A stretch of DNA of 64,000 nucleotides from Escherichia coli. GTDB lineage: Bacteria; Pseudomonadota; Gammaproteobacteria; Enterobacterales; Enterobacteriaceae. This document shows positions 59,801 through 62,800 of this stretch, piece after piece. The stretch lies in assembly GCF_003334305.1 (NCBI RefSeq), contig NZ_QOWS01000002.1. One strand, 5' to 3'. Position numbers: made by a program. Every line of letters starts with the position of its first letter. Within the stretch, counting starts at the first letter, position 1.

Positions 59801-62800
59801 GAGGCAGCGGAGCTTACACGTTAAATGGGATAGAGATTATCAGCGTTGAGGGGGAATCAAATGGGGAATTTATTAAGGATTCGAGGATTTTCGCCGGTGC
59901 CTACGAATATTCATTAACCCGAGGTAATACCGAAGCGACCAATAAAAACTGGTATCTGACTAACTTCCAGGCAACGAGCGGCGGTGAAACAAACTCCGGA
60001 GGAAGTTCAGCGCCTACTGTTGCGCCTACCCCCGTCCTGCGCCTCGAAGCTGGAAGTTACGTCGCCAACCTGGCAGCCGCTAACACTCTTTTTGTTATGC
60101 GTCTGAACGGTCGTGCGGGTGAAATGCGCTACATCGATCCTGTAACTGAACAGGAGCGTTCAAGCCGACTTTGGCTACGTCAAATTGGCGGGCATAATGC
60201 CTGGCGTGACAGCAACGGACAGTTGAGAACGACCTCGCATCGCTACGTCTCGCAGTTAGGGGCCGATCTGTTAACCGGTGGTTTTACCGACAGTGACAGT
60301 TGGCGTTTGGGAGTGATGGCTGGTTATGCCCGCGACTACAACTCAACTCATTCTAGCGTGTCGGATTATCGTTCGAAAGGGAGTGTCAGAGGCTATTGCG
60401 CAGGGCTGTATGCCACCTGGTTTGCCGATGACATCAGTAAAAAAGGCGCATACATTGACGCCTGGGCGCAATATAGCTGGTTTAAAAACTCGGTGAAAGG
60501 GGATGAATTAGCCTATGAATCCTATAGTGCGAAAGGCGCAACCGTCTCGCTGGAAGCGGGTTACGGCTTTGCCCTGAATAAATCCTTTGGTCTGGAAGCG
60601 GCGAAATACACGTGGATATTCCAGCCACAGGCACAGGCTATCTGGATGGGCGTCGATCATAATGCGCACACCGAAGCCAATGGCTCACGTATTGAGAATG
60701 ACGCAAATAACAACATCCAGACCCGACTTGGTTTCCGCACCTTTATTCGTACTCAGGAGAAAAACAGCGGTTCGCACGGTGACGACTTTGAACCTTTTGT
60801 TGAAATGAACTGGATCCATAACAGTAAAGATTTTGCTGTCTCAATGAACGGTGTGAAAGTCGAACAAGATGGGGCGAGTAATTTGGGGGAAATTAAACTT
60901 GGCGTAAATGGCAACCTGAATCCAGCGGCCAGCGTCTGGGGGAATGTGGGCGTGCAGCTGGGTGATAATGGCTACAATGACACCGCAGTGATGGTGGGCC
61001 TGAAATATAAGTTCTGATCCCGCCGTTAGCTAAAAAACCGCGTCGTATTCATCGACGCGGTACATATGAAATATTATTTTTTGCCGATAGCACGCATGGT
61101 GTCATCAATTGCCGTGATCAACAGCATTTGCGGGTCTTTAGCGCAAACCTGATTCAGTTTTTCTACCACTTTGGCGCTCAGTTCCGGAGATTGCTCAATT
61201 TTTAAATCACGGCTGGCAACGCTGGCATTACCCATTACCGCAACAATTTCTGCAACCTGTGCGCTGTCAGTTTTTGCCATTTCGTTGGCTTCTGCGCAAG
61301 TAATATAGGTTTCTGACGGCAAACCGTTTTTAATATTGTAGTCCTGCGCCCAGGTCATTGGTGCGAAAACAAACAGGCCCGCCAGTAAAGCAAATTTTTT
61401 CATCATCATTCCTTATTTCATTTTACCCAGAATTGCACCACCCGTACCGCCAATCACGGCACCTTTAATCGCCCCTTCGAGGCCATTGCCGGTCAGAACG
61501 CCAGTGACAGCACCAACGGCGGCACCCACTTTTGCACCTTTACGCGCATTTTTACCGTCGCGGCCTTTTTCTGTTACTGCACCAACACCAGCGCCAACAG
61601 CTGCACCTTTCAGTACGCCATTAACACCATTGCCAGTAAGTAAACCAACGCCTGCGCCTAGCAATGCACCTTTCGTGGTGCGGTTCATATCCGCCATCGC
61701 TGGCGTGGAGCAGAACAATGCTGAGATAAGCCCGAAGGCAAGTATTTTTTTCTTCAACTTAGATGTCCGGTATTAAGTAAGTTGCACACACAATAATTTC
61801 GTCTTCAATTAAGATCTGCTTAACTAAAGAACGCTCGCTATTATTCAGATAATTCAAAATGAGCGTGGCTGTGATGATAGGAATTATGTTTTTTACGTGA
61901 ATGAGAATAATCTTAAATGAGGAATAACTCATTGATTGACAATATTTTTATTCAAGAAGTGTCATTGACTGTTAACGCAATGTTGTAAAGGTAAGATAAT
62001 CTGATTTATCAATATTATTGTGTGATTTTTATGTGAGCAGAAGATATTCATCAGCAACGATTACATTAGTCATTTTATTTTGCCGACGGCCTCATTGTCG
62101 AAAGATAAGCGTACGACAGTATTATCTGAAAAGAGTGATTTTTTATCCAACTACACTTCAGCGCACTGCGTGTAAAAAATGCCTCTTTCTTATGCGGGAT
62201 ATCATCATTTCATCATGATGTCTTTGGTGAGCGGTGAACACAATACACCTGCGCTGTCTCTTCAGGATGAATCCCCTGGTCTGGTGCCTGCGGGCTGATG
62301 TTGCAGCAGAGCTTAGGTCACTTAGACGCTACTATCATTTATCCAATGGCATGGAATCGAAATCAGTCGATACCCGCAGTATATATCGTGAACTGGGTGC
62401 AACGCTGAGTTACAACATGCGTCTGGGGAACGGTATGGAAATTGAACCCTGCCTGAAGGCGGCTGTGCGCAAAGAATTTGTCGATGATAATCGGGTGAAA
62501 GTGAATAGTGACGGTAATTTTGTCAATGATTTGTCGGGCAGACGTGGAATATACCAGGCAGGTATTAAAGCCTCATTCAGCAGTACGTTAAGCGGGCATT
62601 TCGGGGTGGGGTATAGCCATGGTGCCGGTGTGGAGTCCCCGTGGAACGCGGTGGCTGGTGTGAACTGGTCGTTCTGACCATCAACGATTAAACTGCGCTT
62701 CGGCGCAGTTTTCGTTTACAGGGGGCTAAAAGGGAAAATTCTGGGGCAAAAAAAGCCCGCCAGTTACGGCGGGAAACCTCATCCTATGGGAGAACAATGA

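Follow-up and report, generated by a model that had tools for sequence, protein, structure and literature searches.

RESULTS

Layout of the minE-ymgG interval

In a 64,000-nucleotide (nt) stretch of an Escherichia coli genome (contig NZ_QOWS01000002.1), here called the window, we analyzed the interval between minE and ymgG, which holds the ycgI pseudogene and the small open reading frames (ORFs) ymgI and ymgJ. The gene order at this end of the window is ycgH' on the plus strand, ymgD and ymgG on the minus strand, ymgI on the minus strand, ymgJ and a 147-codon ORF containing the ycgI remnant on the plus strand, and minE and minD on the minus strand. ymgI (61932 to 61759, minus strand) comprises 57 codons, and a single base separates its TAA stop (61761-61759) from the TTG start of ymgG at 61757. 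ymgJ (62033-62218, plus strand) has a GTG start and 61 codons, or 66 codons if extended to a TTG (62018-62218). The 147-codon ORF (62234-62677, plus strand) also starts with GTG; it shares the ymgJ frame (2 mod 3) and begins five codons past the ymgJ stop. A further ORF of 39 codons (62179-62298, plus strand), called a hypothetical protein by the Prokaryotic Genome Annotation Pipeline (PGAP), lies in the best-conserved part of the leader described below. A 2.1-kb query over the region was 100% identical to several E. coli chromosomes, from which the RefSeq/PGAP names were taken. This ORF geometry, with ymgI next to the ymgG start and ymgJ in frame with and directly upstream of the 147-codon ORF, is as the first-pass annotation had described it. 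The names it had proposed, ymgI, ymgJ and ycgI, agree with public E. coli annotation (RefSeq/PGAP for ymgI and ymgJ).

ycgI is what a 3,084-bp in-frame deletion left of an autotransporter gene

In strain XJ5.2, the same site, from ymgJ to minE, is occupied by an uninterrupted gene for an autotransporter of 1,132 amino acids (aa), which has AIDA repeats and a Pertactin domain as well as a complete Autotransporter beta-domain (residues 871-1109). Alignment of the window to this allele (L002) placed window positions 60900-62333 at 7901-9335 and window positions 62333-63100 at 12419-13186. The window is therefore the intact allele minus 3,084 bp (1,028 codons, a multiple of three), with no inserted sequence at the junction, where GACGCTACT abuts ATCATTTATCC (62333-62334, plus strand). 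The deletion starts 30 nt before the ATG and reaches codon 1018, and with it went the GAGGA ribosome-binding site and the signal peptide (MNRISRYYFHRSALSLLISAMIYAPPGMTA in the intact allele). Microhomology at the deletion ends amounts to 1 bp (T) only, which rules out repeat-mediated recombination as the cause.

The remnant at 62333-62677 (plus strand) consists of the last 114 codons and the stop codon of an AIDA/pertactin-type autotransporter, and PGAP annotates it as an autotransporter pseudogene with a missing N-terminus. In the 147-aa translation, residues 34-147 are the sole part that matches autotransporter models (positions 319-432 of 432 in TIGR01414, E = 9.6e-22; positions 152-254 of 255 in Pfam PF03797), and the remnant covers roughly the last 40% of the 12-strand barrel. 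The ORF had been described as resembling only the C-terminal barrel strands of an autotransporter; this is correct for these residues, and the first 33 codons (62234-62332, plus strand) are non-autotransporter leader DNA, open by chance in the gene frame. The 147-aa ORF has no type Va signal peptide, its first 33 residues being translated leader, and no passenger domain (AIDA repeats, pertactin-like beta-helix), which is present in the intact allele; nor does it match PF03797 or TIGR01414 in full, as a complete 12-strand barrel would. For 43 codons before the ATG, the leader has no stop in the gene frame, and the same holds for ypjA; hence the fusion reads through as a 147-codon ORF. In E. albertii, the frame of the 147-codon ORF start contains a TAG at codon 6 and an indel, which rules out that the GTG marks an N-terminal extension or an extended signal peptide.

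The junction is identical in the window, uropathogenic E. coli 536 (B2), AVS0710 and strain 500010, which represent four divergent E. coli lineages, and B2-type sequences carry an extra 1-nt deletion just past it. This indicates a single old event followed by further decay. The window copy itself has undergone W-to-C and L-to-F replacements at a Trp and a Leu kept by all other copies. A hairpin and T-run at 62690-62717 (plus strand), read from the sequence and unreported by the scan that predicted the promoters described below, probably served the former autotransporter gene as its intrinsic terminator.

In its position, neighbors and truncated barrel, the remnant shows no essential difference from the ycgI pseudogene of E. 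coli K-12 as annotated, and ycgI has been regarded as a pseudogene before (PMC6206680). What is new for ycgI is the exact in-frame 3,084-bp deletion with its junction at 62333, the common origin of this deletion across lineages, and the existence of intact alleles and of an orthologue.

The autotransporter is ancestral at the locus and was lost repeatedly

We determined the distribution of the locus over 5,426 complete E. coli genomes, counting the window arrangement as present where at least 80% of it was found in one piece. It is present in 4,570 genomes (about 84%), and in 420 (about 8%) the ymgI-ymgJ-leader sequence is contiguous with an autotransporter 5' end. In E. albertii, an intact 1,475-aa autotransporter lies between minE and the ymgG upstream region; protein identity is 52%, and the homology runs beyond the stop codon. 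The presence of an intact orthologue at the locus indicates that the autotransporter is ancestral here and that the deletion is derived. The same autotransporter has been lost independently several times. An O157-like strain has kept a 747-nt remnant that abuts an ompT/IS66 island (L003 7599-8345), strain 5132 shows a clean deletion of the segment corresponding to window 62023-62993 (L008 2525-2531), and the cryptic clades lack the whole cassette (L009 6551-6731), as seen in E. whittamii, Escherichia sp. E1V33, a cryptic-clade 'E. coli' and E. ruysiae.

The neighboring autotransporter gene ycgH (58696-61017) is also decaying. It is a 773-codon ORF with a TTG start in the window, is frameshifted or has an internal stop in other strains, and is reduced to a 40-codon stub in E. 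whittamii (L009 7742-7864); it is absent in E. ruysiae and E. albertii (L016; L018), where ymgF directly follows ymgD. The view that a second decayed autotransporter locus lies next to ycgH is thus borne out by the remnant and by the intact XJ5.2 allele. The two genes are not close relatives: the alignment of the ycgI remnant to the ycgH C-terminus that had been suggested gave no significant similarity (BLASTP E = 0.48), and tblastn gave no hit in the window. By these comparisons, ycgI is related to ycgH at family level at most, and its true relative is ypjA.

The autotransporter upstream region has a paralogue at ypjA

Window positions 61979-62333 share 89% identity with the 355 bp that directly precede ypjA (L004 3780-4135), and the 355 bp on the 3' side, 62333-62687, are 96% identical in nucleotide sequence to the ypjA 3' end. 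The paralogy stops at 62687, 10 bp beyond the stop codon. These identities, 96% over the remnant and 89% over the upstream region, place the gene by descent in the YpjA/EhaD subfamily (type Va, AIDA-I type). The intact allele has the same order of AIDA-repeat, Pertactin and Autotransporter domains as YpjA/EhaD, and PGAP uses the YpjA/EhaD name. In contrast to YpjA/EhaD, it resides at the minE-ymgG locus and not beside CP4-57, and is shorter (1,132 versus 1,526 aa), while the window copy is a pseudogene limited to the last 114 codons.

The segment at 61979-62333 (plus strand), common to the ypjA paralogue and collinear with the intact allele, is the native upstream region of the autotransporter and would comprise its promoter and a long leader; promoter-like sites are predicted at 61972-62000 and 62098-62125 (plus strand). 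The cassette as a whole (61979-62687), from 355 bp before the gene to 10 bp past its stop codon, is paralogous as a segment to the K-12 ypjA locus (L004 3780-8755), whose neighbors are the end of the CP4-57 prophage and a pin-recombinase remnant. XJ5.2 has a single copy of the cassette in its genome. Given the flanks common to both loci, gene conversion could occur between the cassette and ypjA.

ymgI coincides with the predicted promoter and leader of ymgG-ymgD

ymgG (61413-61757, minus strand) starts with TTG after a weak Shine-Dalgarno motif and is followed by ymgD (61074-61409, minus strand). The ymgGD operon belongs to the RcsB regulon and is induced by RcsB (PMC2731931), ymgG-ymgD is induced by envelope damage (PMC5105897), and a fusion to the ymgG 5' untranslated region is repressed by OmrA/OmrB (bioRxiv 10.64898/2026.06.26.734639). 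A sigma-70 promoter is predicted inside ymgI (TTCACG-16-TATCAT; 61901-61874, minus strand). Its -10 element (TATCAT or TATTAT) is kept in 9 of 9 Escherichia sequences, and transcription from it would give ymgG a leader of about 110 nt. The predicted -35 element is abutted by a palindromic, RcsAB-box-like 14-mer, TAAGATTATTCTCA (61902-61915), that is largely conserved across Escherichia and matches the RcsAB consensus (PMC4325325) at 11 of 14 positions, a degree of similarity that is at chance level by count alone. This 14-mer is a candidate for the RcsB site of the ymgGD promoter. As with the RcsB-dependent envelope-stress promoters of osmB, ivy and bdm, expression of ymgGD is induced by RcsB; the candidate box at its predicted -35 element has three mismatches.

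Across the Escherichia alignment, almost no variation occurs in the roughly 100 nt that precede the ymgG start. Within the invariant 45 nt that precede the start, UUAAUACC (61776-61769, minus strand; 12-19 nt upstream of the TTG) is a candidate small RNA (sRNA) site, with predicted complementarity to the 5' end of OmrA/OmrB. Such pairing would be consistent with the reported repression of the ymgG fusion. All fetched E. coli genomes that have the locus encode the same YmgG and YmgD proteins (same WP accessions), in sharp contrast to the adjacent ORFs.

Analyses of ymgI revealed no coding-type conservation. In an alignment of nine Escherichia sequences, the variable columns are distributed over codon positions 1/2/3 as 20/23/20 in ymgI, compared with 10/4/58 in ymgG and 6/3/56 in ymgD. 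Among E. coli sequences, the values for nonsynonymous (pN) and synonymous (pS) differences are pN = 0 and pS up to 0.07 for ymgG and ymgD, whereas for ymgI pN (0.03-0.04) is about equal to pS. Codon 3 of ymgI is TAT in E. coli only and TAA in E. whittamii, E1V33, the cryptic-clade sequence L011 and E. ruysiae; in E. albertii the ATG is missing and aligned codons 3 and 4 are stops. With further stops and a frameshift among these sequences, the frame is broken in 5 of 5 non-E. coli Escherichia. Truncated and extended variants of ymgI also occur among database clusters. The constraint on this region is thus at the level of nucleotides and not of protein, and it fits regulation by RcsB, envelope damage and OmrA/B. 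From its sequence behavior, ymgI is best read as promoter and 5' leader DNA of ymgG-ymgD that is open by chance in E. coli. Its proposed cotranscription with ymgG-ymgD is plausible for a leader RNA and not for a gene.

The length of the ORFs is no argument for coding either. When 61759-62333 was shuffled 2,000 times with dinucleotides preserved, 46% of the shuffles had an ORF of 57 codons or more and 10% had two, showing that ORF length alone is uninformative.

ymgJ and the 39-codon ORF lie within the autotransporter upstream region

ymgJ sits wholly inside the upstream region common to ypjA. In the ypjA copy, its frame meets a stop after 11 codons and contains a 1-nt indel, though the DNA is 88% identical. 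The frame is shifted in E. coli strain AVS0710, E. albertii has no ymgJ counterpart, and the variable columns fall on codon positions 1/2/3 as 8/14/10. ymgJ is most likely a chance ORF within this region, as far as its sequence conservation indicates. At codon 32 (62126-62128), the window encodes Leu (YYLKR), versus Gln (YYQKR) in the MG1655 sequence of a published table; the window thus seems not to be MG1655 itself, despite its K-12-type gene order.

The 39-codon ORF differs from its ypjA copy at five positions, 5 of 5 of which are nonsynonymous, and its variable columns (5/4/2 by codon position) show no codon periodicity. Conservation of the leader occurs in nucleotide blocks. We read the region of this ORF as probably ordinary cis-regulatory leader DNA or RNA. 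A search for the leader in a plasmid collection returned Escherichia records only and none from other genera. Inspection of the sequence upstream of ymgI, of ymgJ at its GTG start and of the 39-codon ORF found no Shine-Dalgarno motif.

Database searches with the small proteins found relatives. Those of YmgI occur in Escherichia/Shigella only and are 36-98 aa long, and those of YmgJ form 23 database clusters, all E. coli-type, of 37-67 aa. YmgI matches family PF28591 (precomputed Pfam, PGAP name) and YmgJ family PF28592 (PGAP name, database relatives), with 95-100% identity to database members and the same genomic position. Those families are defined by sequence only, and the members examined here show neither purifying selection at the protein level nor conservation of their frames outside E. 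coli. NCBIfam holds no hidden Markov models for YmgI, YmgJ or the 39-aa ORF. YmgI and YmgJ were counted among five K-12 hypothetical proteins without a regulator or inferred function (PMC12356324, 2025), and the microproteome survey of Fesenko et al. (PMC11188072) lists ymgI and ymgJ only as already-annotated entries. The searches thus confirmed that the small ORFs have homologues, confined to Escherichia/Shigella, and the autotransporter similarity of ycgI stands as well; the implication that the small ORFs are real protein genes finds no support in the comparative evidence, which contains no coding signature. We infer that they have no protein function.

Beyond the cassette, a strong intrinsic terminator on the minus strand (CCCGCCGTAACTGGCGGG followed by T7; 62756-62773, within 62688-63046) is found some 225 nt past the minE terminator (63024-62997). 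The minus-strand sequence between the two terminators contains no complete ORF of 30 aa or more. The distal one could be a read-through stop or belong to an unannotated small RNA.

DISCUSSION

The features described here were already known and annotated; our analysis adds the exact history of the deletion and argues for ymgI and ymgJ being chance frames in regulatory DNA. We favor, with a probability of about 80%, a reading of the interval as a divergent regulatory region followed by the scar of a gene, in which ymgI and ymgJ are frames open by chance. On the minus strand, the promoter of the envelope-stress operon ymgG-ymgD and its leader of roughly 110 nt would lie in the 175 nt before ymgG, together with a probable RcsB site, and the change from TAA to TAT at codon 3, in E. 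coli alone, leaves the 57-codon ymgI frame open over this DNA. On the plus strand, 61979-62333 would contain the promoter and long 5' leader native to an AIDA/pertactin-type (type Va) adhesin. The adhesin gene is paralogous to ypjA/ehaD and was ancestral at the minE-ymgG locus. One old in-frame deletion of 3,084 bp took the ribosome-binding site, start codon and signal peptide along with the entire passenger, the linker and some 60% of the barrel, and fused the leader to the last 114 codons; as the GTG frame of the leader is open, a 147-codon ORF resulted, while ymgJ and the 39-codon ORF would be frames inside the orphaned leader. With no signal peptide and about 5 of 12 strands, the product can be neither exported nor assembled into a barrel, and ycgI is accordingly dead.

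Several observations weigh against this interpretation. The 39-codon frame is kept in three contexts: the window, the ypjA upstream region, where it also has 39 codons, and E. albertii, where it starts elsewhere and has 34. ymgI is an intact frame in 6 of 6 E. coli sequences translated, its stop lies one base before the ymgG start, a geometry that permits translational coupling, and shorter ORFs with the same stop as ymgI are found in E. ruysiae and E. albertii. ymgI RNA has been detected, and found to be regulated, on microarrays, a signal that a leader would give as well. The pN and pS values come from E. coli sequences that diverge too little for a strong test of the ratio of nonsynonymous to synonymous substitution. 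Lastly, we found no ribosome-profiling, initiation-peak or tagging data for ymgI or ymgJ in the searchable literature, which leaves their translation possible.

The persistence of the 39-codon frame would be accounted for if the conserved leader of roughly 130 nt, with its upstream ORF of 34-39 codons, were an active cis-regulatory device, i.e., a leader peptide or attenuator of ypjA-family autotransporters that is orphaned in the window. Blocks perfectly conserved across E. coli, ypjA and E. albertii, amid flanks that diverge, speak for such a device. A regulatory leader RNA has been described for agn43, another E. coli autotransporter. However, the predicted fold of the leader RNA is no better than those of shuffled sequences (z = -0.29), an Rfam scan of 58000-64000 at E <= 1 returned no match, and the leader, with 81-83% identity, is no closer to its E. 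albertii counterpart than the neighboring genes are to theirs. The upstream ORF itself lacks a Shine-Dalgarno motif, its substitutions are all nonsynonymous, and it shows no codon periodicity. We therefore regard a dedicated regulatory device as possible and, on balance, unlikely.

Another possibility is that ymgI and/or ymgJ are real, very young genes that arose de novo in E. coli, in which case YmgI would be an Ile-rich membrane peptide made from the ymgGD transcript and coupled to ymgG initiation through the TAA-g-TTG arrangement. Besides the intact frame, the adjoining stop and the regulated RNA, the existence of Pfam and PGAP families argues for this possibility, as does the transmembrane segment predicted in one catalogue of annotated small proteins. 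Against it stand the lack of third-position bias, the near equality of pN and pS in ymgI, an ORF length at chance level, frames that are broken in some E. coli strains as well as in the paralogue and sister species, the lack of Shine-Dalgarno motifs before both ORFs, and a literature in which we found no evidence of translation. Young genes at this locus are thus improbable in our view. A more specific version, in which ymgI is a de novo gene at its birth, opened by TAA to TAT at codon 3 in the E. coli lineage, whose translation tunes ymgG-ymgD under Rcs stress through termination-reinitiation coupling, seems to us quite improbable.

The chance-frame and gene-scar reading also has to be set against the idea that the 147-codon ORF is expressed and its barrel fragment functional, be it as an outer-membrane protein or by influencing cell division, a role raised for the UTI89 homologue. 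Many strains, like the window, have the frame open, the region was coenriched with minCDE in a filamentation screen (PMC6206680), and a review lists YcgI among outer-membrane proteins (PMC7383365). However, the authors of the screen ascribe the enrichment to possible linkage to minC (PMC6206680), and the barrel model in the review is broken (PMC7383365). The ORF has no signal peptide, no conserved start (as shown by the E. albertii TAG) and about 40% of a barrel only; it is frameshifted in B2 strains, has lost the conserved Trp, and is deleted outright in strain 5132 and the cryptic clades. A functional fragment is therefore very improbable. Refuted, finally, is the proposal of the first-pass annotation that unrelated AT-rich DNA took the place of the autotransporter 5' part, which would mean insertion of or recombination with foreign sequence: a GC content of 28-33% at 61775-62150 and the abrupt beginning of autotransporter similarity at residue 34 speak for it, but both the intact allele and ypjA (89% identity) are directly preceded by this AT-rich DNA, its proximal ~110-200 nt (blastn) are kept in blocks upstream of the E. 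albertii orthologue, nothing extra is present at the junction, and the low GC content is that of an intergenic regulatory region.

For the K-12-type ycgI pseudogene, the analysis provides a precise origin, an in-frame 3,084-bp deletion of an ancestral ypjA-like adhesin, which has little import beyond annotation hygiene. That YmgI and YmgJ, with Pfam families of their own, are most likely chance frames is relevant to the curation of small-protein catalogues and to the use of these proteins as positive controls, and deleting 'ymgI' would take out the ymgGD promoter and leader. The locus as a whole is a compact example of the repeated, independent loss of a surface adhesin in Escherichia.

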